A stretch of 64,000 bases of DNA from an uncultured Chloroflexia bacterium (GTDB taxonomy: Bacteria > Chloroflexota > Anaerolineae > JAAEKA01). Location: positions 1 to 64,000 of the forward strand of contig CAVPXC010000010.1 in NCBI GenBank assembly GCA_963709505.1, given 5' to 3'. Positions 1-64,000 of this stretch are shown piece after piece (within the stretch, counting starts at the first letter, position 1; each line of letters begins with the position of its first letter). Under the pieces are notes generated by a model, which saw nothing but the letters and a program-made list of their open reading frames with translations, was not told where the DNA came from and did not search any database. The translations under genes were made by a program, and so were the position numbers.

Positions 1-80
1 CCTTTGTTCAAAGTGTGCCAGAGTCATTCTGGCTGTCAGACATTAACAATTGTCAATTGTCAATTGTCAATTGACAATTG

Positions 81-710
81 TTAATGATCGAGCGTATCGG
101 CAGCGCAGCGTATCATCAGTGTTGATGATGTTGCGCCGGGATCTTGATGGCCGATGCTGCGTTCGCCCAGGTAGCTGGCGCGGCCTTTTGTCGCCAGCAT
201 GGGAATCGTCGCCTTCATGCCCTGTTCGGCGGCGGCGGCTCCGGCTTCCAGGATCTCGTGCAGGCTGGCGCCGCCGTCTACCTTGCTGCGCATGGCCTGG
301 CATGCGGGGGTCAAGGCATCAACCATCGTCTTTTCACCGGTGGTCGCCTTGCCGCGTTGCTGAACGCCGGCCAGGCCGGCCTCGAAGGCCGCCACCAGAT
401 CAGCGTCAGCCAACTCGCTTTTGCCGTCGACCGTCATGCCGGCGCGCATGAAAAACGTACCGTAGAGCGGCCCGCCGGCCCCGCCCACTGTCGAGACGAG
501 GGTCATCCCTGCCGTCTTGAGGATCGTGCCAATGTCCTTGTCGGCGACCGTCGGCAGCTTCTCGACGACAGCGGCAAACCCGCGGTCCATGTTAGCGCCG
601 TGGTCGGCGTCGCCAATGGCCGAGTCCAGCCTGGTCAGGTAGTCTTTGTTCTCTGCAAGCACCTGGCGATAGCAGCGTAGCCAGGACAGGATTGCGTCTC
701 GTGTGATCAC
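81..710 (-). CDS. dhaL: dihydroxyacetone kinase, ADP-binding subunit DhaL
   Basis: 209 aa ORF with a typical DhaL helical domain (LTRLDSAIGDADHGANM motif), immediately downstream of dhaK in the same orientation. Confidence 0.8.
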   Translation of the reverse strand: MITRDAILSWLRCYRQVLAENKDYLTRLDSAIGDADHGANMDRGFAAVVEKLPTVADKDIGTILKTAGMTLVSTVGGAGGPLYGTFFMRAGMTVDGKSELADADLVAAFEAGLAGVQQRGKATTGEKTMVDALTPACQAMRSKVDGGASLHEILEAGAAAAEQGMKATIPMLATKGRASYLGERSIGHQDPGATSSTLMIRCAADTLDH

Positions 711-764
711 TGGTTGCCTCTTTAATTGTCAATTGACAATTGTCAATTGACAATTGTCAATTAC

Positions 765-5096: not shown

Positions 5097-5168
5097 TAGG
5101 GGCGGGCCTTGCGTCCGCCCGCGTGTGTTACGCGCGTCGCACGGGCGGACGCAAGGCCCGCCCCTACA
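5097..5168. repeat. REP doublet (inverted pair of GTAGGGGCGGGCCTTGCGTCCGCCC-type palindromic units)
   Basis: Two inverted copies of a ~25-nt imperfect palindrome. The same family recurs at 5399, 11597 and 46903. Confidence 0.7.
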
Positions 5169-13867: not shown

Positions 13868-14058
13868 GTTCTTGAACCGTCGTAGATTGGACCTCTCTTC
13901 TGAAAGAGGTCCCGTCTACTCTACGTGGTCGTTTTTTACAACAGACACTCAGGTGCGGGGCACACACCAGGGGTGAAAACAGCGGGGCTCGGTCGGAGAC
14001 CGGCCCGAGCAACTGGGACGCAACCGCCGGGCTCGGCGGAGACCGGCCCGAGCAACTC

Positions 14059-16558: not shown

Positions 16559-16603
16559 ATCGAGTCACCTCATTCGCAATTGACAATTGACAATTGACAA
16601 TTG

Positions 16604-19821: not shown

Positions 19822-21741
19822 TTAGGAGCCAGTCGCCAGGGTATCGATCTTACCGGCGGCGATATCCTTGGCGATCTGATCGAGCTCGGTCTTGAGCTCG
19901 GCTGGCACCTTGCTGTCGAAGGTGTGGAACGGCGCCAGGCCGACGCCGCCATTGGCGAAGGTGCCCATGTAGTCGTCGCCCAGAGTCAGGGTGCCGTCCT
20001 GCAGCGCCTGGATGGTGTCGTAGACAGCCTTGTCCATGTTCTTCAAGATGGAGGTTAGCCAGGTATCGGCGAAATCAGGCGCTAAGACGAACTGGTCGCC
20101 GTCCACGCCGATCATCATCAGGCCGCGCTCCTTGGCAGCTGCTGCGCTGCCCAGGCCGACCGGGCCGGCCACCGGCATGATCACGTCGCAGCCCTCGTCG
20201 AACAAGTTCTCGGCGAAGCGGCGACCATCGTCCGTCGACTCGAAGTTGCCGGTGAACATGCCGTCGTTGGTGGCGTTGTCCCAGCCGAGCACCTTGACCT
20301 CAGCGCTCTTCTGGGTGTTGTAGTAGTCGACGCCGTTCTGGAAGCCGACCATGAAGACGGTCACCGGCGGGATGTTGATGCCGCCAAAGGTGCAGACCGT
20401 GCCGGTCTCGCTCATGCCCGCTGCCAAATAGCCGGCCAGGAACGAAGGCTGGCTGGTGTCGAACTGCAAGCCCTTGACGTTCGGAGCGCTACTGGCCGAG
20501 TCGATGATCGCAAACTTGGCGTCCGGGTTGGCCTCAGCCGCCGCCTTGGTCGCATCCGCCAACAGGAAGCCGACCGTGACGATCAGGTCCTTCTTCTGCG
20601 AGAGGAATTCGTTGATGTTCTTCTCGTAGTCGGTCTGCTGTTGGCTCTCCAGATAGACCCCGTCGACGCCCAGGTCTTTCATGGCGTCCTCGACACCCTT
20701 CCACGCCGTCGCGTTGAAGGACTTGTCGTCGATGCCGCCCGTGTCCGTCACCTGCCCGATCATCAACTGCGGTCCGGCGGCTTTGACTTCACCCGTCATC
20801 GTGTTAACCTTACCGGCGGCGATATCCTTGGCGATCTGATCGAGCTCGGTCTTGAGCTCGGCTGGCACCTTGCTGTCGAAGGTGTGGAACGGCGCCAGGC
20901 CGACGCCGCCATTGGCGAAGGTGCCCATGTAGTCGTCGCCCAGAGTCAGGGTGCCGTCCTGCAGCGCCTGGATGGTGTCGTAGACAGCCTTGTCCATGTT
21001 CTTCAAGATGGAGGTTAGCCAGGTATCGGCGAAATCAGGCGCTAAGACGAACTGGTCGCCGTCCACGCCGATCATCATCAGGCCGCGCTCCTTGGCAGCT
21101 GCTGCGCTGCCCAGGCCGACCGGGCCGGCCACCGGCATGATCACGTCGCAGCCCTCGTCGAACAAGTTCTCGGCGAAGCGGCGACCATCGTCCGTCGACT
21201 CGAAGTTGCCGGTGAACATGCCGTCGTTGGTGGCGTTGTCCCAGCCGAGCACCTTGACCTCAGCGCTCTTCTGGGTGTTGTAGTAGTCGACGCCGTTCTG
21301 GAAGCCGACCATGAAGACGGTCACCGGCGGGATGTTGATGCCGCCAAAGGTGCAGACCGTGCCGGTCTCGCTCATGCCCGCTGCCAAATAGCCGGCCAGG
21401 AACGAAGGCTGGCTGGTGTCGAACTGCAAGCCCTTGACGTTCGGAGCGCTACTGGCCGAGTCGATGATCGCAAACTTGGCGTCCGGGTTGGCCTCAGCCG
21501 CCGCCTGGGTCGCATCCGCCAACAGGAAGCCGACCGTGACGATCAGGTCCTTCTTCTGCGAGAGAAATTCGTTGATGTTCTTCTCGTAGTCGGTCTGCTG
21601 TTGGCTCTCCAGATAGACCCCGTTGACGCCCAGGTCTTTCATGGCGTCCTCGACACCCTTCCACGCCGTCGCGTTGAAGGACTTGTCGTCGATGCCGCCC
21701 GTGTCCGTCACCTGCCCGATTGCCAACTTGGCCGCTTTGGT
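19822..21741. repeat. 960-bp direct tandem duplication (2 copies, ~3 mismatches)
   Basis: Segments 19822-20781 and 20782-21741 are identical except at ~3 positions. The track ORFs 20030-20323 and 20990-21283 are identical. Confidence 0.85.
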
Positions 21742-28245: not shown

Positions 28246-28362
28246 TCAGAAGTAAGTGGCAAGTGGCAGGTGGCAGGTTGCAAGTTACAGGCTGCAAGTC
28301 TTCTGCAACCTGCCACTTGCCACTTGCCACTTGTCACCTGCCACCTGCCACCTGCCACTAAT
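28246..28362. repeat. hexamer-based palindromic repeat block (AGTGGC/AGGTGGC units, inverted halves)
   Basis: Read directly; related blocks at 39497-39580 and 50886-51000. Confidence 0.75.
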
Positions 28363-28724: not shown

Positions 28725-28830
28725 TGATCGGTAATCAGTATTCGGTGATCGGTAATCAGGGTTGGCAGTTGCTGTTTACTACTCGTCAAATTCGAAATCA
28801 CCGATCACCGATCACCGATCACCGATCACA
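28725..28830. repeat. GATCACC/GGTAATCA tandem repeat block with inverted halves
   Basis: ggtgatcggtaatcag x2 ... atcaccgatcaccgatcaccgatcaccgatcac. Confidence 0.7.
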
Positions 28831-30163: not shown

Positions 30164-30292
30164 CGCTGAATGCTGAATGCTGAATGAAGAAAATCTGGGC
30201 TGCCCCATCCGCCTTGCTGCCCGCTCCGCCCTCCGCACTCATCACTCCGCATTCATCACTCATCATTTTCCACTCTCCACTTTCAACAAAGA
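30160..30292. repeat. GCTGAATG x3 followed by a CACTC/CATCACT-type repeat (GTGGAG family, reverse orientation)
   Basis: Read directly between pheA and the first DAHP synthase. Confidence 0.65.
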
Positions 30293-31323: not shown

Positions 31324-31430
31324 GAATTGTCAATTGGGAATTGGGAATTGTCAATGGTTAATGGCGGATCCGGATTCCGGAAATTCGCCATTGACAATTC
31401 TCAATTCCCAATTGACAATTCGAACGATTT
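31324..31430. repeat. ~105-bp palindromic element built from CAATTG/GAATTG heptamer repeats centred on GGATCC
   Basis: Arms gaattgtcaattgggaattgggaattgtcaatgg and its near-perfect inverse. Confidence 0.75.
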
Positions 31431-31458: not shown

Positions 31459-32472
31459 ATGATCATAGTCATGAAAGCAGGCGCAAGTGCCAGGGAAATC
31501 GGGCATGTCACCAGTCGTATCGACGAGATGGGCTTCCAGGTGCATTTGAGTAAAGGCACCGAGCGCACCATCATCGGCGTCATTGGCGATGAGCGGCCGT
31601 TGGACCCTGCGATGTTCGAGGTAATGGAGGGCGTCGAGAAGACGGTTTCTATTTTGCCGCCCTACAAGCTGGCTAGCCGCGAATTTCGGCGGGAGAATAC
31701 AGTGATTCCTGTTGGCGGCACGAGTGTCGGTGGCGAGCGGCTGGCCGTGATCGCCGGTCCGTGCAGCGTCGAGAGCCGCGGCCAATTGCTGGAAATCGCC
31801 CATGCCGTGAAAGAGGCCGGCGCTACGATGCTGCGCGGTGGCGCGTACAAGCCGCGCACATCGCCGTACGCGTTCCAAGGCATGGGGGTGCCAGGCCTGG
31901 AGCTGCTCGTCGAGGCGAGAGAAGCGACCGGTCTCCCCATCGTAACCGAAGTGATGGCGCCGGACAAGGTGGAGCTGGTGGCGGAATACGCCGACGTGCT
32001 GCAGATCGGCGCGCGGAACATGCAGAACTACCCGCTGCTGCAGGCCGCGGGCCGGGTTCAACGACCGGTGTTGCTCAAGCGCGGTATGATGAGCACGATC
32101 GAAGAGCTGCTCATGTCCGCCGAATACATCCTGGCCGCAGGCAACTACAACGTCATGTTGTGCGAGCGTGGCATCCGAACCTTCGAGACGTACACCCGCA
32201 ACACCACCGATATCAATGCCATCCCGGCGCTCAAGCATCTCAGCCATTTACCAGTGATCGGCGATCCCAGCCATGGCACCGGCAAATGGGCGCTGGTGGC
32301 GCCGGTCGCCAGGGCGCTGGTGGCAGCCGGCGTCGACGGCTTGATGATCGAGGTGCACCACGACCCCGAACACGCCCTGTCCGACGGCGCACAGAGCCTC
32401 AAGCCGGAGCGTTTTGCCGCGCTGATCCGGGAGATCCGGATGATTGCTGAGGCGGTGGGGCGGTCTGTGTAG
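31459..32472 (+). CDS. aroG: DAHP synthase (class I-beta) with N-terminal regulatory domain, paralog 2 (intact)
   Basis: 337 aa, continuous regulatory plus catalytic domains ([39 protein letters not shown]). Confidence 0.85.
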
Positions 32473-32556
32473 TGGAAGGTGGAGAGTGGAGAGTGGAGGG
32501 TGAAGAGTGGAGAGAGTCTGGAGTTCCCTCCACTCTCCACTCTCCACTTTCCACTA
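32471..32556. repeat. GTGGAGAGTGGAG-type repeat, palindromic arrangement
   Basis: gtggaaggtggagagtggagagtggagggtgaagagtggag ... ctccactctccactctccactttccac. Confidence 0.75.
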
Positions 32557-33466: not shown

Positions 33467-33560
33467 TGAAGGGTGGAGGGTGGAAAGTGGAGGGTGGAGA
33501 GGCGAAGATTCTCTGCACTCTGCACTCTCCACTCTCCACTCTGCACCCTCCACCCTCGAC
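33463..33560. repeat. GTGGAG-family palindromic repeat
   Basis: gggtggagggtggaaagtggagggtggagagg ... ctctccactctccactctgcaccctccaccc. Confidence 0.75.
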
Positions 33561-33578: not shown

Positions 33579-34883
33579 ATGAACCTCCTAATCCATCCTA
33601 TCCAAGAGCTCTACGGCACTCTGACCGTTCCCGGCGACAAATCAATCTCGCATCGAGCCGTCATGTTTGCGTCCTTGGCTGAGGGGCAGAGCCAAGTGCG
33701 TAATTTCCTGCCTGGCGGCGATTGCCGCGCCACGCTTGGAGTCATGCGAGCGCTGGGTGTGCCGATCACGGAAGTCGACTCAACCACCTTGCAGATCGAC
33801 GGCCTGGGCCTGGCCGGCCTACAAGAGCCGGCCAGGCCGTTGGATTGCGTCAACTCCGGCACGACGATGCGGTTGATCGCGGGCTTGTTGGCGGGCCAGG
33901 ATTTCTTTAGTGTGCTGAACGGCAGCGAACAGCTGACTAAGCGACCCATGGGCCGCATCGTCGAGCCGTTGCGCCGGATGGGTGCGTCGATCCACGGCCG
34001 GCAGGGCGGCCGGCTGGCGCCGCTGGCGATCCAGGGCACGCTGTTGCAGGGGGTCGACTACACACTGCCCGTGGCCAGTGCGCAGGTCAAGTCGGCCGTG
34101 CTGCTGGCTGGGCTGTACTGCAACGGGCTGGCTATCGTGCGCGAGCCAGGCCCGGCGCGCGATCACACCGAGCGCATGCTGGCTGCGATGGGCGCCCCGA
34201 TCCGGGTGTTGGGTTCGGTGGTGATCAGCGAACGGCCCAACCGTCCGCTGCGCCCGATGGACCTGACCGTGCCGGGCGACATGTCGTCGTCGGCCTTTTT
34301 GCTGGCGGCCGGGCTGCTGGCGCCGCAAAGCTTGCTCACCATCGCCGGCGTGGGGGTCAATCCCACGCGCACCGGCTTGCTCGACGTGTTTTGCCAGATG
34401 GGCGCAGACCTGCGCCTGGAAAACGAGCGCAAGGAGGCAGGCGAACCGGTGGCCGACATCGTCGTGCAGCATAGCGATCTACGTGGAGTTGAGCTAGGAG
34501 GCGCTTTGATCCCGCGCATCATCGACGAGCTGCCTGTGCTGGCGGTCGTAGCGACTCAGGCGCACGGGAGGACGATCGTGCGTGATGCCGCCGAGCTGCG
34601 CGTCAAGGAGACCGACCGGATTGCGACGATAGCGACCGAGCTGCGCAAGATGGGCGCGCACATCGAGGAGCGCCCGGACGGCTTTGTCGTGGAGGGTCCG
34701 ACGCAATTGCAGAGTGCGCCGGTCTGGAGCCATGGCGATCATCGATTAGCGATGGCGCTATCGGTCGCGGCGCTGATTGCCGCTGGCCCGGTGCTGGTCG
34801 AGGACGTTGAGTGCATCGGCGACAGCTACCCCGGCTTCGAGGCGGCGCTGAACCGGTTAGGTGTGGAAATGGTAGAGGCCTAG
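33579..34883 (+). CDS. aroA: 3-phosphoshikimate 1-carboxyvinyltransferase (EPSP synthase)
   Basis: MNLLIHPIQELYGTLTVPGDKSISHRAVMFASLAEG ... full-length EPSPS. Confidence 0.85.
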   Translation: MNLLIHPIQELYGTLTVPGDKSISHRAVMFASLAEGQSQVRNFLPGGDCRATLGVMRALGVPITEVDSTTLQIDGLGLAGLQEPARPLDCVNSGTTMRLIAGLLAGQDFFSVLNGSEQLTKRPMGRIVEPLRRMGASIHGRQGGRLAPLAIQGTLLQGVDYTLPVASAQVKSAVLLAGLYCNGLAIVREPGPARDHTERMLAAMGAPIRVLGSVVISERPNRPLRPMDLTVPGDMSSSAFLLAAGLLAPQSLLTIAGVGVNPTRTGLLDVFCQMGADLRLENERKEAGEPVADIVVQHSDLRGVELGGALIPRIIDELPVLAVVATQAHGRTIVRDAAELRVKETDRIATIATELRKMGAHIEERPDGFVVEGPTQLQSAPVWSHGDHRLAMALSVAALIAAGPVLVEDVECIGDSYPGFEAALNRLGVEMVEA

Positions 34884-34885
34884 AT

Positions 34886-34965
34886 TGGACCTTTCTTCCG
34901 AGAAAGGTTTAATCGCGCTCGATATTGATTGGACCTTTCATCCGAGAAAGGTCCAATCTGATCCA
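34886..34965. repeat. two copies of the palindrome TTGGACCTTTCNTCCGAGAAAGGTCCAAT
   Basis: Also present at 13886-13912. Confidence 0.7.
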
Positions 34966-34995: not shown

Positions 34996-35844
34996 GTGAC
35001 GATTCTCGTCGGTCTCATCGGTTGGCCGCTCGGACACAGCGTCAGCCCCGCGATGCACAATGCCGCATTCCAGACGCTGGGGCTGGACGGCCGCTATGAG
35101 GCGCTCCCTGTGCCGCCGGAGCAGGTGGGCGACCTTGTTCGTAGCCTACATGCCCGCGGTTTTCGCGGCGTCAATGTCACGATTCCGTACAAACAAGCCG
35201 TCATGCCGCTAATGGACGAGCTGAGCGAGGCCGCGCAGCGCATCGGCGCGGTCAACACGATTGTCGTCGAGCCGGATGGCCGCCTGCGCGGCGACAACAC
35301 GGACTGGTTGGGATTTCTTCATCCCCTGGACGAACGCGGCTTTGACCTGGCCGATAAGTCCGTTCTGCTGCTCGGCGCCGGCGGCGCGGCTCGTGCTGTG
35401 GTCTATGCGCTGCTGCAGCGCAATATCGCGCGTCTCACCATCTGGAACCGTAGTCTGGACCGCGCGGAAGCGCTTGCTAGGCACGCTGCGACTCTGGACT
35501 CTTTATTGACAATTGACAATTGTGAATTGTCAATTGTCAATTCCGACCTGATCGTCAATTCCACCCCTATCGGCATGTGGCCGCACATCAACGAGTCGCC
35601 GTGGCCGGCCGATTTGTCCTTTCCATCCCGCGCGCTGGTCTACGACCTGGTGTACCGGCCGGAGCAGACGCAGTTCTTACGTCAGGCTGAGGCCGCCGGT
35701 TGCTCGGTGCAGGGAGGGATGGAGATGTTGGTCGTGCAGGGAGCGGCCGCGTTCAGGCTTTGGACGGGACATTATCCGTCGTTGGGCGTGATGATGACGA
35801 CAGCCCGCTACGTAGTGGCAGGTACAGAGGAGGATGATTCATAA
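34996..35844 (+). CDS. aroE: shikimate dehydrogenase
   Basis: GTG start after AGGAG; VGLIGWPLGHSVSP and NVTIPYK motifs. Carries an in-frame CAATTG-repeat insertion at 35505-35546. Confidence 0.75.
   Translation: MTILVGLIGWPLGHSVSPAMHNAAFQTLGLDGRYEALPVPPEQVGDLVRSLHARGFRGVNVTIPYKQAVMPLMDELSEAAQRIGAVNTIVVEPDGRLRGDNTDWLGFLHPLDERGFDLADKSVLLLGAGGAARAVVYALLQRNIARLTIWNRSLDRAEALARHAATLDSLLTIDNCELSIVNSDLIVNSTPIGMWPHINESPWPADLSFPSRALVYDLVYRPEQTQFLRQAEAAGCSVQGGMEMLVVQGAAAFRLWTGHYPSLGVMMTTARYVVAGTEEDDS
35505..35546. repeat. CAATTG heptamer repeat inserted in-frame inside aroE (encodes LTIDNCELSIVNS)
   Basis: ttgacaattgacaattgtgaattgtcaattgtcaattcc within the CDS at a position where homologues have a short loop. 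Confidence 0.7.
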
Positions 35845-35944
35845 TCTACTTATTGCATTCCCGCGCTACCAAACGCCAGAACAACCGCTCAATGAAGAGA
35901 AACAGCGAGACCATCCAGAAGTACATCGCTGCCCAATCCAAACT

Positions 35945-36960
35945 ATGATCACCACGCAGACGCTTCCCTACCGGGGCAGTAAAGCCCTGGCCGATGAACT
36001 GAATAAGGAAAGCGCCAGGCACTACAACGCAACGCTTTCCAACCATTGGCGCACCTTCCGCAAGAAGGGCGTGTGGCTCTCCGAAAAGTCGGCCTACCGC
36101 TGGGAGGACTACCAGTCGGATGGCACGATCCTACACGCGCACAGTCGGGATGCGGCCCAGCAGGCGTTCTATCGGTCGTGCAAGACGGCGAGAACCCTCA
36201 AACGGAACGGGAACACGGCAGCGCGCTATCCCAAGTATCGCCGGGGCTTTAGAACCACGATCTGGAAGAATACCGGCATCCGTAAGAGCGGCAGCACCCT
36301 GCTGCTGGCTCGCGCGGGGCCTGGCTCCGATCACGGTGGCCTTCCCTGCCGCTTGGGAGACCTGTCGGGTCTTGGAAGCCCGGCTTGTGTTCGACAAGAA
36401 GTCCTACAAGTACACCTGGCACATGGTGCTCGAAGACGGTCTGGTCCCGCCAGTCGCACCGGGAGACCGGGTGCTGGCGGTGGACATGGGCGAGATCCAT
36501 CCGTCGGTCATAGCGGACACCGAGCAAGCCCTGGTGCTCTCCTGCCGAGCGCTGAGGGCTTGTAAGCAGTACGGGAACAAGCGCCGGTCGGAACTCGCTT
36601 CTTTGCGGGATCGGAAGAAGCGCGGGTCGGCCAACCGGAAGCGCATCCAGAAACGCATGAACCGCTTCAAGGCCCAACAGGAACGCCGCGAAAGGGACAT
36701 CTTGCACAAAGTCTCGCGCGCCGTGGTCGATCATGCAGTGGCCCGGCGTGCAGGCAAAATCGTCATCGGCGACGTGCGGGACGTGGCCGATGGCGTCAAC
36801 CTGGGACACCGAACGAACCAGAAGGTGTCTGGCTGGTCGCATGGGCGGCTGCGCCAGTACATCAGGTACAAGGCCGAGCATGTCGGGATCGAGGTCGTGC
36901 TGCAAGAACCATTCAAGACGCTGCCATCAGGCAGCGCGTGGAGCAGCTTGTTCGTTCCAT
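35945..36960 (+). pseudogene. tnpB: IS605/IS200-family TnpB (OrfB, RuvC-like) remnant inserted between aroE and aroC
   Basis: Split across two frames (shift near 36310). RuvC-I (VLAVDMGE) and RuvC-II (IVIGDVRDVADGVNLGHRTNQKVSGWSHGRLRQYIRYKAEHVGIEVV) are present; the C-terminal zinc finger/RuvC-III is missing. No tnpA or recognisable IS ends. Confidence 0.65.
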
Positions 36961-36975
36961 CCTGGAGGGTGTATG

Positions 36976-37320
36976 AAAAACCAGGCCGCTATTCGAGAAC
37001 GCTACCTTCGCGATCCTCTGCCGGTGCGTCTTGGTGGATTGGCTGCGAATCTGGCCCGAGTTAAGTCTATTTCCAACCACCCAAAGCATAGCGCGATAGT
37101 CGAAGGTCTTATCGATGAAAGCAAATACTTTGTCGAGTGGGCGGCTCCCGATGCAGAAGTAGATCGTCAAGCGGAGTTGGTCGCAATGCAGGTTCAACTG
37201 GCTCTCTGGCAATTGAATTGGTCAAAGATTTGGCCAGACCCGGCGGCGCGAGCTTTAGTGGCTGATCAGGCGAAAGAATGGTCGGATCAGGTACTTGCCA
37301 TGTCTGGTCTGCTGGACTAG
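36976..37320 (+). CDS. hypothetical helical protein (114 aa)
   Basis: MKNQAAIRERYLRDPLPVRLGGLAANLARV... no family recognised; 23 nt upstream of aroC. Confidence 0.35.
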   Translation, partial: KNQAAIRERYLRDPLPVRLGGLAANLARVKSISNHPKHSAIVEGLIDESKYFVEWAAPDAEVDRQAELVAMQVQLALWQLNWSKIWPDPAARALVADQAKEWSDQVLAMSGLLD

Positions 37321-38580: not shown

Positions 38581-39502
38581 TCAGCGACGAAGTCGTTGGG
38601 CGCGGAGTTGATCCAGGCTGGCGCTGGCCGATTTTCGAACCTTCGCCTTGGGGTCGGACAGGGCAGCCTCGAGGGCTTTCATGGCGTCGGCCCCGCCCAG
38701 GCGTCCCAGCGCCTGCGCGGCCGCCTCGCGCACCATGGCAGAATCGTCGCTCGCGAGTTCGCTTGGCGATCTCCGGAACCGCCCGTCGATCTCCCAGCTC
38801 CGCCAGGGCCAGCAACGCTGCGCTACGTGCCTGTCCCTGCCGATGGGTAAGTGCATCTAGCAGGGGCGCTAGGCCGGCAGGCCCACCAAAACGTCCCAAC
38901 CAATGGGCCGCGCGGGCGGCATCTGCAGGGTCATTGCCGTAGAGCCGCTCGATCCATGCGCTGACGTCGAGATCGATGTCGGCTCCGAAACGCACGGCGT
39001 CCTTGTCGACCTCCGCAAAACCGGCGTAGATGTCGGCGAAGGCCGGATCGCCAGGGGTTTTCTGTTCAGATTGGCCCCGGTCAGTGCCTTCGGGATGCTC
39101 TGCCAGAGCCGAACGAGGATGGGCCGCAGGCCGCGTCAGCGTGAGTGCAAACTGTGTTGCCGAGCGCACTTGGCCACCGGCGGCCCGCACCAATCCGGCC
39201 AGCCCGCGGTCATTGGTGACGACCGTGATCTGCGTGGGGGTCTCGCTCTTCTCCACCATCCGGACGATCACCTGATCCGCCTGGACGCCGGGTGGTGCGA
39301 AGCGCACGGTCACGCCGCCGCCCGAGAGATTCCACAAAGGCGCGGGGCCAGGACCGCTGTCAAAGACCACCGTTACCTGTCGTCGGCCGTCAGCGCAATA
39401 CATGCGCAGCCGCAACACCAGCTGATGTTCGTCGTCAGCCTGAGCCAAGTCGATGTCAGGCATTGCGCCGATGAGGTTGTGGCCGTCGATGAGGAGGGGC
39501 AT
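38581..39502 (-). CDS. NYN-domain (YacP-like PIN RNase fold) protein fused to C-terminal HEAT repeats, apparent frameshift near 38860
   Basis: N-terminal MPLLIDGHNLIG NYN signature; HEAT repeats continue in ORF 38581-38856. Confidence 0.55.
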
Positions 39503-39580
39503 GGGAAGTGGCAGGTGGCAAGTGGCAGAGTTGCAGGTGTCGGAGTGTCAAGGTGTCAGGTGTCGGAGTTCTGAGGTAAT
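39497..39580. repeat. hexamer repeat block (GGCAGGTGGCAAGTGGCAG ... GGTGTCGGAG units)
   Basis: Same family as 28246-28362. Confidence 0.65.
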
Positions 39581-42001: not shown

Positions 42002-42058
42002 GAGATCAGGATTATAGCGTACGAGAACACTCGCGGGCAAGCTGCGAAGTGAACCGGG

Positions 42059-42139
42059 GTGTATTTCAAGTTGGGGGCAGACCCTTCGGGTTTTCCGCAA
42101 ACCCGAAGGGTCTGCCCCCAACTTGAAATACACCCCCTG
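42059..42139. repeat. ~80-bp perfect palindrome (37-bp stem) in the murJ / peptidase divergent intergenic region
   Basis: ggggtgtatttcaagttgggggcagacccttcgggttttccgcaaacccgaagggtctgcccccaacttgaaatacaccccc; the motif ACCCGAAGGGTCTGC also appears at 3889-3905 with its inverse at 3809-3823. Confidence 0.8.
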
Positions 42140-47962: not shown

Positions 47963-48059
47963 AGTGGTCGATGGGCACGGTCGGTCCCTCTGCCCGCTCC
48001 GGGGTGCTCCGCAAGGAGGCTGCGCACAGACCGGCCCGAGCGAAGTCTAAGGTCGTACT

Positions 48060-50885: not shown

Positions 50886-51000
50886 GTGTCAATCGAGGGT
50901 GACAGGTGGGAAGTTGCAGGTGGCAAATTGCAAGTCGCAAATTCTCTCATATTCCGTACCTGCGACTTGCAACCTGCCACCTGCAACCTGCCACCTGTCA
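50886..51000. repeat. hexamer palindromic repeat block (GCAGGTGGCAAATTGCAAG ... CTTGCAACCTGCCACCTGC)
   Basis: Inverted halves; same family as 28246 and 39497. Confidence 0.7.
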
Positions 51001-51766
51001 CTGCCGGCCCAGGTCGAATTCGGCCAGCACTGGGTAGTGGTCTGACGCATGGTGCACGGCTGCCGGCTCGGTGACGACGTCGCACCGCCGCAGATGGCCG
51101 ATCAGGGAAGCGTCTGCGAAGATGTAGTCCAGACGGACGCCTGGGTCGGGTGGAGGGAGTGTATAGCCGGTGTCATTCGGGTGCAACGTCCGGTAGCAGT
51201 CTGACGAAGCCGGCGGATTGCATCTGGCGCACTGCCAGCCGCAGCTTGCCGTTGCCGTGTAGCCAGAAACGCAGGGCCGCTGCCCTGTACAGCCTTTCGA
51301 GGCGCATCGGATCGTGCGGGGCCACGGCGTTGAAATCGCCCATGACTAAACATGGTTGGCCTGAGACTGGCCGCGTCTGGCGGAGCATGGTCCACACCTC
51401 CCAGGCCCGCCAGAGCTCGCGGCCGATACTGTAGAGCGGGATCGTGTGGATGCCGAAGACGTGCAGCGGGCCCACGGTCGGATGGCGGAGCGTGGCTTCG
51501 AGGATCACATGGTGCACCGGCGGATACGGATGATGGCTGCAGGCCTCCACGATTGGCCAGCGGCTGAGCAGCGCTATGTGGCGGGTTGAGTTGCCTTCGA
51601 CGACTGCGGCCTGCAGCGACAGCCTGGCTGCCAGCCGCTCCGCCAAGCCGTTCTGATACACCTCTTGCAGCACGGCTATGTCGGGCCGGACTGTCTCGAG
51701 CACGTCGGCGATGAGTGGCTCGCGACCCACGCCGCCGTCCAGGATGTTGTAGGTGAGGACACGCAT
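50998..51766 (-). CDS. endonuclease/exonuclease/phosphatase (EEP) family protein, apparent frameshift near 51180
   Basis: N-terminal MRVLTYNILDGG ... and the C-terminal SDHYPVLAEF motif lie in two frames. Confidence 0.6.
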
Positions 51767-52941: not shown

Positions 52942-53110
52942 GTCACCAGGGGCACGGTCGGAGACCGGCCCGAGCAGCATGTGAAGTCACCAGGGGCACG
53001 GTCGGAGACCGGCCCGAGCAGCATGTGAGTCACCAGGGGCACGGTCGGAGACCGGCCCGAGCAGCATGTGAGTCACCAGGGGCACGGTCGGAGACCGGCC
53101 CGAGCAGTAC
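52942..53110. repeat. ~3.9 copies of a 43-bp tandem repeat (GTCACCAGGGGCACGGTCGGAGACCGGCCCGAGCAGCATGTGA)
   Basis: Read directly; the core GGTCGGAGACCGGCCCGAGCA also occurs twice at 13985-14060. Confidence 0.85.
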
Positions 53111-53132: not shown

Positions 53133-55130
53133 TCAGAGCAGATACCAGTCCAAGAAGCGCTCCATCGTCGCATAGAAGTGCTGGAGATTGCCGATCTGCA
53201 GGAAGCCGTGGCCTTCGCCTTCGTAGACGAAAAACTCGAAGGTCTTGCCCTCGCGCTTCAGCGCTTCAACCAACTGCTCGCTCTGCTTGGGGTGGACGCG
53301 CTCGTCGTCGGCGCCGTGCAAAATCAGGAGCGGCGCCTGGATGGCGGCCACGTCGTGGATCGGCGAGCCGGCGCGGTAGCCGGCGTGGTTGGCGGCGGGG
53401 TGCCCCATCTGCCGTTCCAGGTCCTCGCGGCCGATTCGGTCACCCTGCGCCCACGAGGCCAGGATGTCGCAATCCCCGAACTTGGCCACGCCGCAGGCGA
53501 AGCGGTGCTGTGGATCGCGCGCCAGCGCTAGCAGCGCCAGGTAGCTTCCATAGCTCGCGCCGTAGATGCCCAGCCGTTGGCCGTCCACCCAATCTAAACC
53601 GGTCAGGTGATCGGCCGCGGCCAGCATGTCGTCGGTGTCCACGATGCCCCAGGCGCCGTGCAGTGCGTGTTGATGCGCTAAGCCATAGCCCGTGCTGCCG
53701 CGGAAGTTGGGCGTCAACACGGCATAGCCCTTGGCGACCAGCCACTGCACCAGGATGTCCCATGTGCGAGCGTATTCGTCGGTCGGCCCACCGTGCGGAT
53801 AGACGATGGCCGGGCAGGGTTTTTCGCTTGAGGCGGTGGGCGGACGGAACAGCAGGGCCGGGATGCTGGCACCGTGCGTGCTGGGATAGGTCACGAATTC
53901 GGGCTGAACCAGGCCGGCGCCGGCTAAGGCCGGCGGCATGGACGCCGTCAACGGCCGCGCCGCGCCCGTCGTCGCATCGACCTGGTAGATGTCGGGCGGT
54001 TCAGTAGGGCTCTCGAACTCCACGGTCAGCCAGCGCCCGTCCGGGCTCCACTGCGGCCGGCTGTGCCAGCCGGGTCCGTCCCTCAATACGGTCTCTTGGC
54101 CCGAAGCTACGTCGAGCAGACAGAGGTCGCTCGTGCCTTGGCGGTTGACGACCAAGGCGATTGTTAGGCCGTCGGGGCGCCAGGCGAAGTCTTGGATGTC
54201 GGCGTGGGTTTGGGTGAGCCCCTGAACCCCCTCCCCGGCCCTCCCCCTAGGAAGGGGAGGGGGGCTGTTGTGCATGCTGTCAAGGGGGGCACGAGCATCT
54301 TGGACCTCGCCGGCCTTTTCCTCAAGGGAGGGAGATAGAGACAGAATGTACAGCTCGCGCCAGCCGGTGCGGTTGGAGGTGAAGGCGATGGCTTTGCCGT
54401 CGGGCGACCAGCGGGGGTTTTTGTCCCAGACTGTGGCGGCGCCGGTGAGATGCGTGACCTGGCCACCGGCTGCCGGCACGATGCAAATCTCAGATCGGTT
54501 GAGATCCTCCTGCGGCTGGTAGACAAAGGCGATGAGGCTGCCGTCGGGCGACGGCTGCGGGTCGGAGACGTCGGCTTGGAAATGGGTCAGTGCTGCGGGC
54601 CAGGCGCCCTCTGGCGACGTGGCGCACAGGTTTTCGAACGTCCCCCGGCCGCTGAGGAAGTAGACGCGGCGTCCGTCCGGGCTGAAGATCGGGTTGGAAT
54701 CGCCGTGCTTGAAGTCGGTCAGCCGGCGGGCGCGGCCGGTCTCGACGTCCACTTTCCAAATGTCTTCTTGCGCCGCATAGACGAGCGATCGGCTATCCGG
54801 GCTCCAGCGCGGGGCTTCGTCCGACCAGAAGGTCTGCGCGGGGCGGTCGAAGGTCAGCCGTTGCGGCCAAGCAGCCGGCGCGCAGCCGTCGACAGGCAAA
54901 ACGTACAGATCGTTGTTGCCGTCCCGTTGCCAGACGAAGGCCACTAGCCGGCCATCCGGCGACAACGCGTGATGGATAATCAAAGGAACGCCTGTCAGCA
55001 GGTCGAGGCTCCACGGCGCGGGCATCTTTCGATCCGGCCGCGCCTGCGCCGGCCAGCCGTTGCGTTCCTCTTTCAGGATTGTTGCCTTCATGCGTTTCTC
55101 AACACCTCCTCCGGCATTAACAATTGTCAA
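53133..55130 (-). CDS. S9-family serine peptidase with N-terminal beta-propeller (TolB-like) domain
   Basis: GASYGSY nucleophile elbow, Asp/His downstream, WD40-like propeller repeats. Contains an in-frame G-rich palindromic insertion at ~54228-54272. Confidence 0.8.
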   Translation of the reverse strand: MTIVNAGGGVEKRMKATILKEERNGWPAQARPDRKMPAPWSLDLLTGVPLIIHHALSPDGRLVAFVWQRDGNNDLYVLPVDGCAPAAWPQRLTFDRPAQTFWSDEAPRWSPDSRSLVYAAQEDIWKVDVETGRARRLTDFKHGDSNPIFSPDGRRVYFLSGRGTFENLCATSPEGAWPAALTHFQADVSDPQPSPDGSLIAFVYQPQEDLNRSEICIVPAAGGQVTHLTGAATVWDKNPRWSPDGKAIAFTSNRTGWRELYILSLSPSLEEKAGEVQDARAPLDSMHNSPPPLPRGRAGEGVQGLTQTHADIQDFAWRPDGLTIALVVNRQGTSDLCLLDVASGQETVLRDGPGWHSRPQWSPDGRWLTVEFESPTEPPDIYQVDATTGAARPLTASMPPALAGAGLVQPEFVTYPSTHGASIPALLFRPPTASSEKPCPAIVYPHGGPTDEYARTWDILVQWLVAKGYAVLTPNFRGSTGYGLAHQHALHGAWGIVDTDDMLAAADHLTGLDWVDGQRLGIYGASYGSYLALLALARDPQHRFACGVAKFGDCDILASWAQGDRIGREDLERQMGHPAANHAGYRAGSPIHDVAAIQAPLLILHGADDERVHPKQSEQLVEALKREGKTFEFFVYEGEGHGFLQIGNLQHFYATMERFLDWYLL

Positions 55131-55167
55131 TTGTCAATTGTCAATTGACAATTGTTAATGCCGGAGG
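55108..55167. repeat. palindrome CCTCCGGCATTAACAATTG(TCAATTG)nACAATTGTTAATGCCGGAGG
   Basis: At the S9 start / C45 stop junction; CAATTG family. Confidence 0.75.
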
Positions 55168-59925: not shown

Positions 59926-62900
59926 GGCTGCATTATAGCATAGTCGAGGTGAGATGAGCCATCCGGTTGGCTGTTTGTTCCTTCCACCACCGCGATCTCC
60001 TCCTCCGTCAGCCCGTAGAGCCGGTAGACGACTTGGTCGATCAGCCGGTCGGTGCGCTCGATCTGGGTGCGGACGGCGGCCAGCTCGCCTTGCAGCTCCT
60101 CCAGCGGCGCGAGATCGGCCGCGGGGTCGAAGACGGGGAGCTTGACGGCTTGGATCTTCTGCAAGGTGGATTTGGTCTTGCCGCCGGGGAAGGCGCCGGC
60201 ATGGGTGAACTGGTCCAGCACGGGCAGCGCATGGGTGTAGAAACGGGCCACGGACGGGTCGAGCTCGAAGCGATAGACCGGCGTCCAGGTGCGCAGGATG
60301 GTCTTGCCGTCCTCCTCGTAGAGCCAGGAAGCCCAGCCGTCGGCCGGGTTGCGGTGCTTGAGATGGGCTTGCAGCTCGACCCGCTGGCCGTCCAGCCTGA
60401 CCAACCGCAATCCCTCGACGTCGTGGCGGACGACGTCAAGACCGGAAGGGTCTGCCGAATGCACCAACTCCCCGTACTTGATCGCGTTGGCGAAGACCTT
60501 GGGCAAAGGCTGGCAGGCCGCGCCCCGATCCAGGAACTTGAAGGGGTCGAGCGCTTTCTCCAGCTTCTGGCGCTGTTTGTTCAGGTCGATCATCTGCTCG
60601 GCCAGGAAGGCCAGCAGGTCGTGGATTACGTCGGCGTGCTCCGGTTCCTGGCCGAGCTGGTGCTCGACGAAGCCCAGGACGCAGGCGTAGTCCCACTTGT
60701 CGCAGAACTGGCCGTATAGCCGCCGGCCCTTCTCGGCCAGACGTTCGCGCTCGTCGGTGGGGGTGGTGAAGACGATGCGTCTCAACGGCAAGTCCGCAAT
60801 TCGTTTACACTCACGTGATTATTCGTGCTAGTAAGACTAAATCGCCATTCGAGAAGTTGGCTATTCAAAAGCGCAAGTAGAAAATGCCCGGCCATTATAT
60901 CTGTCCCGACCACGAAGTACGAAATGCTATCGAAGCAATAGCTGGGAGTGCGGTAGGTGGAGAGAAAATCAACCTTCGCCAATTGTATCAGCGCGGCATT
61001 TCGTTGGTATCCGATTCGGTACAGCTTTGTGTGTTTGGCCCGCTCGCCTCCAACTGTCACTTAAAGCCGGCAAGATCCGGATGTTTCTCCACACCTTGAC
61101 GTGCCACGGGTTGAAACTCATAGCGCTGCACGTTTCCACCGCGCAACACCAGTGGACCTGCACTAGAAATCTCAGACAAGAGATGAACTTATAGTTGTTT
61201 CGTTGATTTCACCTTGAAAGGTCTGAAGTTGCTGCCCTAACGGCACGAACATCTCATCTGAAGTGAGCCGTAGTGCTAGAGCAAAGGACTCATTCGAGCT
61301 TAACACTGGGACAACCAAGTTGTGTGGGCTGAACCGAAGAATATCGAGCGAACTAGCCGCATACTGACCTGAAACCTCACTTAGCAGACCTCCAGGATGC
61401 GACAAAGGTGAGGCGTTTTCGAAATAATTGGCAGAAACCCGTAATACAAGTATGCAAGTAGGTAGTTTTGCTTCAGCATAATGACACGCGATCGATGGAT
61501 CGTCGTTTATTCTTCAAACACTTGATCCGTGTAATGCGTGATATGTCGCATGATGCTGACTTTCTCAGCGGAGGTATTCTCTGAATATCCGCGCAGGATC
61601 GAATCGGCAACAACTGTGACCGACGTAACTATCCTGACCGAGCCACAGCTGAAAGCGAGAACCACTGAACAGACTAATAAAGAGTCGACTACACCAGATC
61701 GGGTTGGCATAACCTGCCTTCAAGGTATCTCATACCATGGACGAGAACCTTTCACGCTCATTTTGATCAAGAACATCATACGGCGGATTCCCAATCACCG
61801 CATCGAACCCCGCCGCATCCCCTTGCAGCCGGCCGTGCGGATCGAAGAAGACCTCGGGGAACTCCAACTCCCAGTGGAAAAAGCGCCGCTCGGCCGCGAT
61901 CTGTTTGCCTTGGGCGATCAGCTCGTCCCAGCCCTGCAGGGCAAAGCCGCCGTGCAGCAGGTATTTGGCAAGCGGCTGCCACACGTCGTCGGCAATCGCC
62001 AGCCCAAAGTGGCGTGCGGTCCACAGGTCGGCCAGCAGGCGCGCCTTTTCGGTGGTCTTGCGCACGGTCTCGACGTAGATGCGCTCGGATTCGTGGACGT
62101 CGGCCAGGGTCTCGCTGCCCAGGCGCTCGATGTCGTCCATGAAACGGCTGGCGGTGCGCATCGACCCGGCGAAGGCGCTGTCGTCCAGCATGGAAAGCTG
62201 GCCGGCCTCGCGCAGCGCGGCCTCGTCGGCCTGCGCCTTGCGCGTCTTGCGCTTCTGGGCGGCGCTTGGCCCCGCGCTCGGCCCGGCAGCGTCCAACGGC
62301 AGGTCGGCGACGCGCGCGCCGATCAGCGAGTTGCCGCAGCGCAGGTGATGGTCCAGGAAGCTCAGCGGCTTGTTCTTGCTGACCGTCGCCAGCCACAGGC
62401 TCAGCTTGGCCAGCTCCACCGCCAGCGGGTTGAGGTCGACGCCGTAGATGCAGGCCTGCGCCACCCGCCGGCGCCAATAGGCGAGCTGGCTCTCGTCGCC
62501 TGCGGTCGGCCCTGCGGTGGAGGGTGGAGCGTGGAGAGTGGAGGGTGGACCCGAGGCCGGCTCCACGCTGGGTACGCCTTGCTCCACCAGGAAGCGGGCG
62601 ACGAACTCCGCGGCCGCCACCAGGAAATGGCCCGAACCCATCGCCGGATCCAGGATATTGACGTTCAGAACCGCCCGCGCCAGCTTCTCCGGGTCGCTCA
62701 CAGCGCCGCCTGCGTCGAGGAACGGCGCAGCCGCCTCGGCCAGCACCGGCCCCACCGTGTGCTCGACGATGTACTGCACGATGTAGTCGGGGGTGTAGTA
62801 GCTGCCGGTAGCCTTGCGCTCGCCTTTGTCCGTCACCAGATAAACCTGGCCAGGAAGAATGTCCGCTCCACTCTGACTCCCTCCCGCTCCGCTCTCGACT

Positions 62901-64000
62901 CCTCCCCCTCCGAGGGGGAGGGTTGGGGAGGGGGTTGGGGAAGCGGCTCAATCACTTCCTTCCCCTTAACCTTGCGCACCACCAGCGGCTCGCCCGCCAC
63001 GCGCACCTGGTATTCCAGCAGCCCCTCGTAGATGCTGCCCAGGTGGCGGATTTCCAGGTCGCGGTAGTCCACAACCTCGCGCGTGCCGGTTTTGGGATCG
63101 CGCGTGCGCGCCAGCAGGTCGATCGCCTTGCGCAGGTGCAGGTCGCCGACGCGGTGCTGCTCCAGGAAGGGATGGTTGGCCGGCTTGAACAGCCCGCCGT
63201 CGTAGGCCGGCACGCCCAGGTAGGGATCGCCGCCGTCGATCACGCGCCACAGCTCGGCCAGGCGCTGCCACAGGCTGGACATGCTGGGCGCGGCCGGTTG
63301 GCCGCTGTCGATCTCCTGGGCGATGCGCCGCTTGAGCGCCTGCAAGCTGTAGCTCTCGCGGTAGGTCGAGTTCTCCAGCACCGGCAACAGGTCGCGGTCC
63401 TCGGCGTAGAGGATGAACAGCAGCCGGTAGAGCACGATCAGGCTGTTGTCGTGGATGGCCCGCAGCGTGGTCTCGTCCGGCGTCAGGCCGTTGCCGGGGA
63501 AGTCGAGGAAGCCCTGGGCCAGGGCAGCCAACGCCTCGTAGACCTGGTCTTTCAGCCCGGCGCTGATGCCTTGCTGGTAGGCCAGGCTCTCGGCCAGCAC
63601 CAAATCCAGCCAGGCTGGCGCGCCATGGGCTGCGCTGTCGGGGAGGAAGGCCTCGCGGCGGAAGAAGAGCCAGAAATACTTGAACGCCTCGGCGTCGCCG
63701 GCCTCGATCAGCGCGGGCAGATCGACCTCGTAGTAGACGTCCAGCTTCTTGGAGGAGTCCTTGTGGTAAAGCTGCCACAGCCGGCCGTTGGTCAGCACGC
63801 CCCAGGCCAGCCCCGAATGGCGGATGTAGAAGTCGATCTGCAAGGCCGGGTTGGCGTGGAGGGTCTTGCTGCTATCGGCCGGGCCGCTGCGGTCCAGGGG
63901 CCGGTTCCACGCCTTGGCGTCGGCCACGGCCAGGGCGGCGGCCAGATCAGCCTCCGCGGCCGGGCGGTGCAGCGTCTGGATGGCGGTGCGCGTCGCCTCG
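59922..64000 (-). pseudogene. type IIG restriction-modification / PglX-like N6-adenine methyltransferase, disrupted (multiple frames), 5' end beyond window
   Basis: N-terminal/helical part (62833-64000+, open past the window edge). MTase core with GSYYTP and NPPY motifs (61730-62836). Low-GC TRD-like segment in broken frames (60792-61729; ...LLALLNSQLLEWRF...STNNHVSVNELR). C-terminal domain ending in the RLYGLTEEEIAVVEG hallmark (59922-60791). Confidence 0.6.
60792..61729 (-). other. low-GC (~48 % vs ~65 %) target-recognition-domain segment of the MTase gene
   Basis: Visible composition drop; ORF fragments 60782-61060, 61172-61405 and 61507-61710 lie in different frames. Confidence 0.6.

Follow-up and report, generated by a model that had tools for sequence, protein, structure and literature searches.

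How do short palindromic repeats come to be read in frame inside conserved proteins, and do they add anything to them? The question is raised by a 64-kb stretch of Chloroflexota DNA (positions 1 to 64,000 of contig CAVPXC010000010.1, hereafter the window; guanine-plus-cytosine content, GC, ~62%), in which such repeats lie within three genes, encoding shikimate dehydrogenase (AroE), an S9 family peptidase and a restriction-modification (RM) methyltransferase. An earlier note on this DNA took them together for mobile insertions, similar to miniature inverted-repeat transposable elements (MITE) or CIR, that are tolerated within proteins and can add surface loops. All three elements are indeed present at the places and in the frames reported there, as coordinates and translations confirm, but they do not form one set: the aroE repeat is a tandem heptamer array, and the other two genes contain a G-rich palindrome of a different family. 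The aroE tract is probably an old, vertically inherited array driven by slippage, and the G-rich palindromes belong to a separate, widespread family, inherited in the S9 and methyltransferase genes.

The heptamer array of aroE

The aroE gene (34996..35844, plus strand) is intact and encodes a protein of 282 aa with the Pfam domains Shikimate_dh_N, Shikimate_DH and SDH_C. Its product is 100% identical to the database protein P0001, has PDB matches down to E = 5e-65, and its AlphaFold2 (AF2) model has a predicted local distance difference test score (pLDDT) of 90.2. The array occupies positions 35505..35542 of the plus strand. Its DNA, ATTGACAATTGACAATTGTGAATTGTCAATTGTCAATT (38 nt), comprises 5.4 copies of a 7-nt unit according to Tandem Repeats Finder (TRF), by which all period-7 arrays were listed, and has the structure (TTGACAA)2-TTGTGAA-(TTGTCAA)2. 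The tract is self-complementary, with arms of 17 nt each, 100% complementary, and a 3-nt loop (arm pairing was established by a repeat finder). Folded as RNA, it yields -21.5 kcal/mol, with z = -5.7 relative to shuffled sequence, the measure used for all elements below. The array is in frame, encoding residues 171-183, and is translated as LTIDNCELSIVNS.

The array-coded residues align without gaps with AroE from Geobacillus (PDB 2egg, the best PDB alignment). In the AF2 model, which has the NADP-binding fold, they correspond to a strand (residues 172-175) and a coil (176-184), followed by the DLIV strand. The segment from GAGGxARA to LIxNTTP, measured in 110 homologues, is 50 aa long in the window, 51-57 aa in array-free relatives, and 50-117 aa in array bearers, with 117 aa in P0052. 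Given the gap-free alignment, the segment length and the model, the tract takes the place of the usual strand and linker in the NADP-binding domain and brings no extra residues. Hence the suggestion that this element is an inserted extra loop does not hold for the aroE gene of the window, since repeat-free orthologues match it in length, and the structure predicted with the array has a core strand plus a short coil (pLDDT 90) rather than an added loop. The composition of the array also has a bearing on the reading frame: a tract (CAATTGA)n with n>=3 contains TGA in frame in every phase, and at precisely that codon the window array turns to TTGTGAA, and that of a syntenic relative (L001) to AATTCAC.

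The nearest named homologues belong to metagenome-assembled genomes (MAGs) of Anaerolineae, Anaerolineales and Caldilineales. In a 34-sequence alignment of AroE (alignment A1), a heptamer-coded peptide (SLTIDNSQLTI..., SLTIHQFTNSPLTIN...) is found at one fixed position in orthologues down to ~56% identity. In the neighbour-joining tree of 107 AroE sequences, constructed with the array segment masked, array bearers constitute one contiguous block of 68 leaves, and the remaining leaves have ordinary sequence at this position; Leptofilum and other Anaerolineae, among the contigs examined, have no array there. The contig profile search with the aroE alignment relied on two very general peptide patterns, and the matches listed came mostly from distant taxa; four of these contigs were used (L004, L005, L008 and L015).

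The position of the array is constant, but its unit is not. Among named MAGs, the site is occupied by (CACCGTT)4 in L005, by CCATTTC units in L008, and by AT-rich units in L015. At this site, L204 contains a 30-nt higher-order unit, composed of subunits of 7+8+7+8 nt, in 7.7 copies. Since the units of L005, L008 and L204 are direct repeats unable to pair, the hairpin is not conserved at the aroE site, only the 7-nt periodicity is. Arrays neighbouring aroE in L004, L005 and L008 have a unit different from the one inside the gene, and thus there is no evidence of locus-to-locus homogenisation in these contigs. In two syntenic relatives, L001 and L002 (84-86% identical at the protein level), the tract is distinguished from that of the window by indels of 33 and 21 nt. 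The gene is in frame in all orthologues analyzed (110/110), and the observed length changes, 21, 30 and 33 nt, are all frame-preserving.

According to the scenario that we favour, a heptamer array would have entered, or have been amplified locally at, the codons of the 'LTI' beta-strand preceding the DLIVNTTP strand, in a single ancient event in the ancestor of one aroE clade. It would later have been resized by replication slippage, a mechanism suggested by the sequence comparison, with purifying selection passing only frame-preserving changes and stop-free unit variants. The window array would then be at its minimal size, replacing the strand-plus-linker, while in relatives it may have swollen to loops of up to ~60 extra residues; the hairpin would be a by-product of the self-complementary CAATTG unit rather than a conserved feature of the site. 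Under such a scenario, an essential biosynthetic enzyme has retained, over long evolutionary time, a repeat with a unit length not divisible by three, and, as slippage is filtered to frame-preserving, stop-free outcomes, one codon position may hold anything between a bare beta-strand and an extra loop of 60 residues.

Several other peculiarities of this gene and its surroundings should be mentioned. A second in-frame hot spot is present in aroE of relatives (P0018-P0040, columns 100-260 of alignment A1), where VNEIHRLTPQRPLRAWE and SPAPEGASYVQPGISIPG form modules that are present one to three times and add up to ~140 aa (P0021, P0022); the window gene is empty at this place (residues ~91-97, VVEPDGRL). 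Two copies of a 32-nt hairpin (GATTGGACCTTTC.TCCGAGAAAGG..., 34883-34958) fill the space from the stop codon of aroA to the start of aroE, and a third copy lies 21 kb away (13885-13916). Downstream, between aroE and aroC, there is an IS605-type TnpB gene (OrfB_IS605) split over two overlapping open reading frames (ORFs) at 35834-37064; it is not present in the syntenic L001, and the AroE C-terminus of L002 holds a remnant of its sequence, FPRYQTP.

Heptamer arrays across the window

The aroE array is one of ~16 period-7 tandem array loci identified by TRF in the window, which amounts to about one per 4 kb. They belong to several unit families, CAATTGT, GTGGAGA, TGCCACT, ATCACCG, GCTGAAT and others, as is likewise the case in relatives. 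Genes were mapped by GC at third codon positions (GC3), and doubtful array positions were then checked one by one. The coding fraction of the window is at least 82%, yet 13 of the 16 arrays are intergenic (binomial p ~8e-8), the three intragenic ones being the aroE array and two arrays of the methyltransferase gene. Three further elements seemed at first to be intragenic, namely two arrays (28797-28829, 39502-39569) and a palindrome (42056-42136), but turned out to lie upstream of true starts or in spurious ORFs.

Most loci consist of an array followed by its own reverse complement, forming long near-perfect hairpins at gene boundaries. Intergenic arrays lie directly 3' of stop codons or just 5' of ribosome-binding sites, their variant units are mirrored in both arms, and they fold with z = -10 to -14. 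The motif TTGACAATTG, with at most one mismatch, occurs 50 times in the window (2.3 expected), clustering at six loci: 42-86, 724-762, 16577-16603, 31324-31421, 35505-35542 and 55116-55160. CAATTG was also considered as a globally iterated palindrome similar to HIP1, and this was rejected, as only 11 sites are found outside the arrays, compared to ~14 expected in the whole window.

In syntenic relatives these arrays are retained but altered in size. The intergenic arrays of the aro cluster occupy the same gene junctions and belong to the same unit families in L001 and L002 as in the window, with different copy numbers, and the hairpin upstream of the S9 gene is also present, with small differences, in L003, a syntenic relative that carries both an S9 orthologue (P0196) and the methyltransferase. 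Conserved position combined with changed copy number fits vertical inheritance with slippage rather than recent transposition, and no target duplications have been seen; as regards the heptamer arrays, the comparison with MITE or CIR therefore fails.

The CAATTG-type loci of intergenic location include the hairpin at 42..86, an array at 724..762 (found both by TRF and by motif count), an array (CAATTGA)x3.9 at 16577..16603, which lies between two minus-strand genes and is free of reading-frame constraint, and the hairpin at 55116..55160 (minus strand; z = -14.5) between an AAT-family gene and the S9 gene. The last one contributes to a protein: the AAT-family gene (55127-56296, minus strand) ends with ...GINNCQLTIDN*, and this hairpin provides its TGA stop together with the ~11 codons before it; the LTIDN tail is a peptide also encoded by the aroE array. 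The ends of the two CAATTG hairpins read CATTAAC...GTTAATG.

Within the aro cluster, heptamer arrays directly follow the stop of the PDT gene (30165..30267; TRF and inspection). The pair GAATTGG / AATTCAC follows the stop of a DAHP synthase gene (31324..31421; z = -11.5), the pair AGTGGAG / CTCCACT follows the second DAHP synthase gene (32471..32555; z = -10.5), both positions being kept in L001, and one more inverted pair, identified by TRF and by comparison with relatives, separates the genes of prephenate dehydrogenase and aroA (33470..33557). Further intergenic inverted pairs, found by TRF and the repeat finder, are located at 28254..28359 (AAGTGGC / TGCCACT) and 50899..51005. A search of the window against Rfam gave nothing at the gathering threshold. 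Arrays of this kind matter for annotation, as they inflate or split gene calls, supply C-terminal tails and stops, and cause frameshifts at their edges, so that 'conserved' protein lengths are unreliable in such MAGs.

Repeats of other types were also observed in the window. The palindrome at 42056-42136 (81 nt) has 38-nt arms, 100% complementary, and a 5-nt loop, and lies in a divergent intergenic region upstream of a murJ-like gene. Immediately downstream of the S9 gene (52942-53107) there are 3.8 copies of a 43-nt unit, with 99% identity, whose core GGTCGGAGACCGGCCCGAGC recurs at 13977-14053 and 48018-48041. A dispersed 26-nt hairpin family, GGGCGGGTGCAAGACCCGCCCCTACG, is found at 5143, 11604, 46908 and 46963, with two identical copies 55 nt apart. 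Finally, a 708-aa ORF that encodes two substrate-binding domains of the Bmp/PnrA-like type contains a 300-nt direct repeat with 98% identity (19834-20133 / 20794-21093), apparently the result of a recent internal duplication or of gene conversion.

The G-rich palindrome in the S9 peptidase, the methyltransferase and other genes

The S9 family peptidase gene (53133..55091, minus strand) encodes 652 aa, with a beta-propeller and a Peptidase_S9 domain (Pfam). An in-frame, lineage-specific insertion of ~34 aa in a propeller loop (54222..54338, approximate limits, minus strand; alignment A2) contains the G-/C-rich palindrome core CCCCCTCCCC-GG-CCCTCCCCCT-AGGA-AGGGGAGGGGG (54225..54263), which is without the right outer arm of the family consensus given below. 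The stretch CCCTCCCCCTAGGAAGGGGAGGGGGG (54239-54264) is in frame in the gene, giving ...NSPPPLPRGRAGEGVQG.... The ~34 residues, ...LSPSLEEKAGEVQDARAPLDSMHNSPPPLPRGRAGEGVQG..., are missing from 15 of the 16 aligned orthologues (~617 aa) and are shared with P0196 alone, whose locus in L003 is syntenic. Through the insert, the DNA of the two loci is 83% identical, similar to the flanks, which indicates that the insert was inherited. In the AlphaFold model it forms a short helix followed by residues 260-287 with pLDDT <50, between two propeller strands. For this gene the proposal of an added surface loop is borne out, and the palindrome forms part of that inherited loop.

In the Eco57I/MmeI-like RM methyltransferase, the coding sequence of the window is disrupted. 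The N-terminal part (62836..63999, minus strand) runs off the window, its frame ending at 62836; the second reading frame (61730..62947, minus strand; Eco57I, N6_Mtase) stops just after the NPPY motif. Homologues are ~1300 aa long, so the window gene is both split and shortened, ending just past NPPY. Exactly at the frame change there is a composite element (62856..62948, minus strand) consisting of a C-rich arm, a G-rich palindrome core and a GAGNGGA heptamer-like array, which provides ~20 aa more than homologues have. Indeed, between ...YEP and AGQVYLVTDKGERK there are ~9 residues in homologues and 29 in L003, where they are in frame as LSPTPSPTLPLGGGGKSERRGQGSQSGAD. Compared to L003, the element of the window shows changes of -1, -1 and -2 nt; the first one, in a run of two T on the gene strand (62941..62942, minus strand; three in L003, alignment A6), breaks the frame, and the other two jointly preserve it. 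The L003 assembly contains other frameshifts, also in its S9 gene, and thus some of the differences between the window and L003 may be sequencing or assembly errors on either side. The core at 62936-62901 is 89% identical over 36 nt to the S9 core at 54225-54260. The relationship of the two elements and the location of the former at a frame break, both already proposed, are hence supported. Its tolerance within the protein is so only in part: it adds ~20 aa and is in frame in L003, while the window copy is in a fragmented remnant of the gene. Probably, the element is an inherited in-frame addition that, in the window, would have suffered a 1-nt deletion in an already truncated gene.

The second methyltransferase array is a 47-nt segment with (CCACNCT)~5 (62514..62560, minus strand), which is in frame, encoding ...GPPSTLHAPPST..., and is missing from L003 and other homologues. 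Just upstream of it (62505-62560), the unit of this array, CTCCACGCT, is found as its reverse complement, AGCGTGGAG, in the native flank, and one may speculate that the array was seeded by fold-back copying of adjacent sequence. The three in-gene elements considered at the outset are all shared with relatives, and hence inherited rather than recent; only the 47-nt segment is absent from L003.

Taken by themselves, the G-rich palindromes are not significant hairpins. For those of the S9 and methyltransferase genes, the folding energy does not stand out from that of shuffled sequence (z = -0.5 and -1.1, respectively), and GGGGAGGGG is not enriched in the window (16 occurrences, 26 expected). As the window alone gives neither a folding nor a count excess, their significance rests on comparative evidence. 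A search pattern built from the four copies of the window and L003 was matched by at least 120 metagenome contigs. Within 24 nt downstream, 43 of 96 distinct copies contain the exact complement of their left outer arm, which the pattern does not demand, as opposed to 0 of 96 upstream controls (among the matches listed). The family consensus is a ~50-nt double-stem palindrome, CCCCCTCCCC-AA-CCCTCCCCCCT-CNGA-GGGGGAGGG-nnn-GGGTGGGGGG, whose start reads ...CA|CCCCCTCCCC. A literature search with the palindrome sequence returned unrelated eukaryotic matches and no description of it.

Members of this family are in frame in other proteins as well, which agrees with the claim of in-frame tolerance. 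Among the matches listed, 14 of ~80 evaluable copies are inside long ORFs with a coding-like GC3 profile. Seven such ORFs were scanned against Pfam: five are clear, being methionyl-tRNA synthetase (MetRS), alpha-2-macroglobulin (A2M), a NuoL-like antiporter subunit, DnaE and an SNF2 helicase, and the remaining two have YfhO and NOV_C matches alone. Orthologous genes on different contigs share the codon position of the palindrome (alpha-2-macroglobulin in L095, L106 and L123; NuoL-like in L107 and L156). In these genes the copies are sometimes two in tandem, encoding PSPSQGEGRGGG-like peptides; such a peptide recurs among metagenome copies in different organisms, and the window holds two G-rich copies. 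In other contigs the palindrome is contained in a longer shared repeat (L104, L105, L114, L153 and L194) or lies centrally within inverted heptamer arrays made of unrelated units (L196, L198, L138, L147, L191, L195 and L200), as in (TTCGGAT)n-[palindrome]-(CAATCGG)n, which links both repeat types in other organisms. This widespread double-stem palindrome, often in frame in large conserved proteins, is a possible lead for further studies.

Alternative explanations and known repeat systems

Vertical inheritance with slippage, though we hold it to be the probable history of the aroE tract, has to be weighed against a number of observations that do not follow from it. In the AroE tree, units of the CAATTG type are divided between two separate sub-branches, which could mean replacement from other arrays rather than pure drift in situ. 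In close relatives, the aroE array includes a nested 21-nt segment, CCCTCCGGGACGGTTCCCAGT, encoding PPGRFPV and absent from the window, that looks like a small discrete insertion or deletion and not like a unit slip; it was considered as a dispersed element, and rejected, as no other copy is found in the window or in L001-L003. The 47-nt methyltransferase array is gone from L003 despite ~94% identical flanks, so arrays can appear or vanish quickly. The hairpins at 42-86 and 55116-55160 coincide in 45 of 45 positions, variant end units included, which independent slippage does not predict and which suggests that sequence has been copied from one locus to another, whether by gene conversion or by transposition. 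Lastly, among the matches listed, near-identical G-rich palindromes are found in contigs of 45-72% GC, a distribution that vertical descent does not explain.

A number of these facts would fit transposing miniature elements (similar to MITE, to REPIN or to small dispersed repeats, SDR) that are occasionally tolerated in frame as loops. Such mobility would account for the identical hairpins at two distant loci, for the similar S9 and methyltransferase cores lying in opposite orientation relative to their genes, for the dispersal of the palindrome over at least 120 unrelated contigs, some within longer repeats or array centres, and for the 21-nt and 47-nt presence/absence differences; moreover, in-frame intragenic repetitive extragenic palindromic (REP) sequences and Rickettsia palindromic elements (RPE) have been documented elsewhere (PMC3733652, PMC10969869). 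Yet neither target-site duplications nor distinct terminal inverted repeats are seen at the aroE array, the two CAATTG hairpins, the methyltransferase elements or the 47-nt array, and the elements, of 38-50 nt and palindromic throughout, are below the ~70-300 bp of MITEs. The aroE array adds no length, is restricted to one clade and varies in unit sequence by lineage at a fixed position, the other arrays likewise keep their positions in relatives while changing in copy number, and neither the S9 nor the methyltransferase composite element differs in presence between the window and L003. Nor is a transposase linked to the arrays among the selected window ORFs that were scanned, the adjacent IS605-type TnpB being missing from relatives that keep them. 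We therefore regard mobility as an unlikely explanation of the elements in these genes.

The stability of the hairpins might, on the other hand, reflect selection for a cis-regulatory RNA or DNA structure: in aroE, a translational pause, an RNase site or an attenuator of the aro cluster, comparable to a possible stabiliser or terminator role of the intergenic hairpins. The aroE hairpin is significantly stable (z = -5.7), the mirrored variant units in the arms of intergenic hairpins, next to stops or ribosome-binding sites, fit selection for pairing, and hairpins of this kind recur throughout the aro cluster in both the window and L001. This reading is very improbable, as the units of L005, L008 and L204 at the aroE site cannot pair, no Rfam family matches in the window, and the hairpins have no U-tracts. 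Repeat-mediated switching is well known for RM genes, and slippage in the 7-nt or homopolymer tracts of the methyltransferase could toggle its reading frame, given that the frame break coincides with a T2/T3 run on the edge of the repeat element and that the 47-nt array, not a multiple of three in length, is present in the window and not in L003. But the methyltransferase arrays are short and imperfect, the gene, ending after NPPY where homologues have ~1300 aa, is probably dead in any frame, and part of the differences may be sequencing errors, in view of the frameshifts in the L003 assembly; such a phase-variation switch seems most unlikely.

A broader possibility, which we put forward with considerable doubt, is that inverted heptamer arrays, alone or around the ~50-nt G-rich palindrome, could make up an undescribed class of self-propagating hairpins in Chloroflexota and many other lineages. 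These would spread by some copying process (for example hairpin-templated synthesis, gene conversion or an unrecognised enzyme) and could colonise coding sequences as hypervariable in-frame loops, such as those in AroE, NuoL-like proteins, MetRS and DnaE.

Among known repeats, the heptamer arrays most closely resemble the short tandemly repeated repetitive (STRR) sequences with 7-nt units in heterocystous cyanobacteria and the TAACTGA heptamers found in marine Beggiatoaceae (PMC4679880). The same paper cites Mrazek et al. 2007 for heptanucleotide repeats being the most abundant class of long simple-sequence repeats in most of the genomes surveyed. Common to all these systems are tandem 7-nt units, several unit families per genome, a strong preference for intergenic locations close to starts and stops, and copy numbers that differ between relatives. 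Anaerolineae include filamentous forms, as do the hosts of STRR-type repeats. The differences are that the host of the window is a member of Chloroflexota (~62% GC) and not a heterocystous cyanobacterium, that the arrays of the window are usually inverted pairs with perfect long hairpins, and that one of them is in a housekeeping enzyme and retained across a clade. Literature searches for heptamer repeats in Chloroflexi or Anaerolineae found nothing, and the present data extend a dense, hairpin-forming heptamer-array style of genome, so far seen in cyanobacteria and Beggiatoaceae, to Anaerolineae-like Chloroflexota. In having a unit that is not a multiple of three in a coding sequence, where a single-unit slip would shift the frame, the aroE tract is similar to contingency loci, but it is short, imperfect, located in a biosynthetic enzyme and found in frame-preserving length classes alone.

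SDR of Nostoc (Elhai et al. 2008, Genome Res 18:1484, as cited in PMC3116915), reportedly dispersed elements of only 21-27 nt in a filamentous bacterium rich in repeats, are brought to mind by the nested 21-nt aroE segment of relatives and by the array-centred G-rich palindromes, though the sequences are unrelated. The in-frame palindromes have their counterparts in intragenic REPs and RPEs, palindromic repeats that are in frame in protein-coding genes (PMC3733652; PMC10969869). As in those systems, short palindromes are read through and add a peptide at tolerant sites (the S9 loop, the L003 methyltransferase, MetRS, NuoL-like, DnaE, A2M). RPEs, however, are ~100-150 bp long, encode a conserved peptide specific to the family, are restricted to Rickettsia and found in many unrelated genes of one genome, whereas the elements considered here are ~35-50 nt long, with two G-rich copies in the window. 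Of near-identical dispersed copies, such as MITEs have in one genome, the 64 kb covered here contain one identical pair (42-86, 55116-55160) and one pair of G-rich cores with 89% identity. REPs, imperfect palindromes of 20-40 nt, have GTAG or CGTC tags at one end and are associated with RAYT (Y1) transposases; neither tag is present in the G-rich palindrome or at the ends of the CAATTG hairpins, and no RAYT gene was seen, although no search aimed at it was made. The aroE tract differs from both in being a tandem array without added residues and not a discrete element. At the same time, the arrays of the window resemble REPs and REPINs in being predominantly extragenic, located mostly directly after stops, and arranged as inverted doublets forming hairpins. 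The finding thus belongs to known kinds, STRR-like heptamer arrays and in-frame palindromic repeats, with one unexplained lead in the G-rich palindrome shared across lineages and in its association with the arrays.

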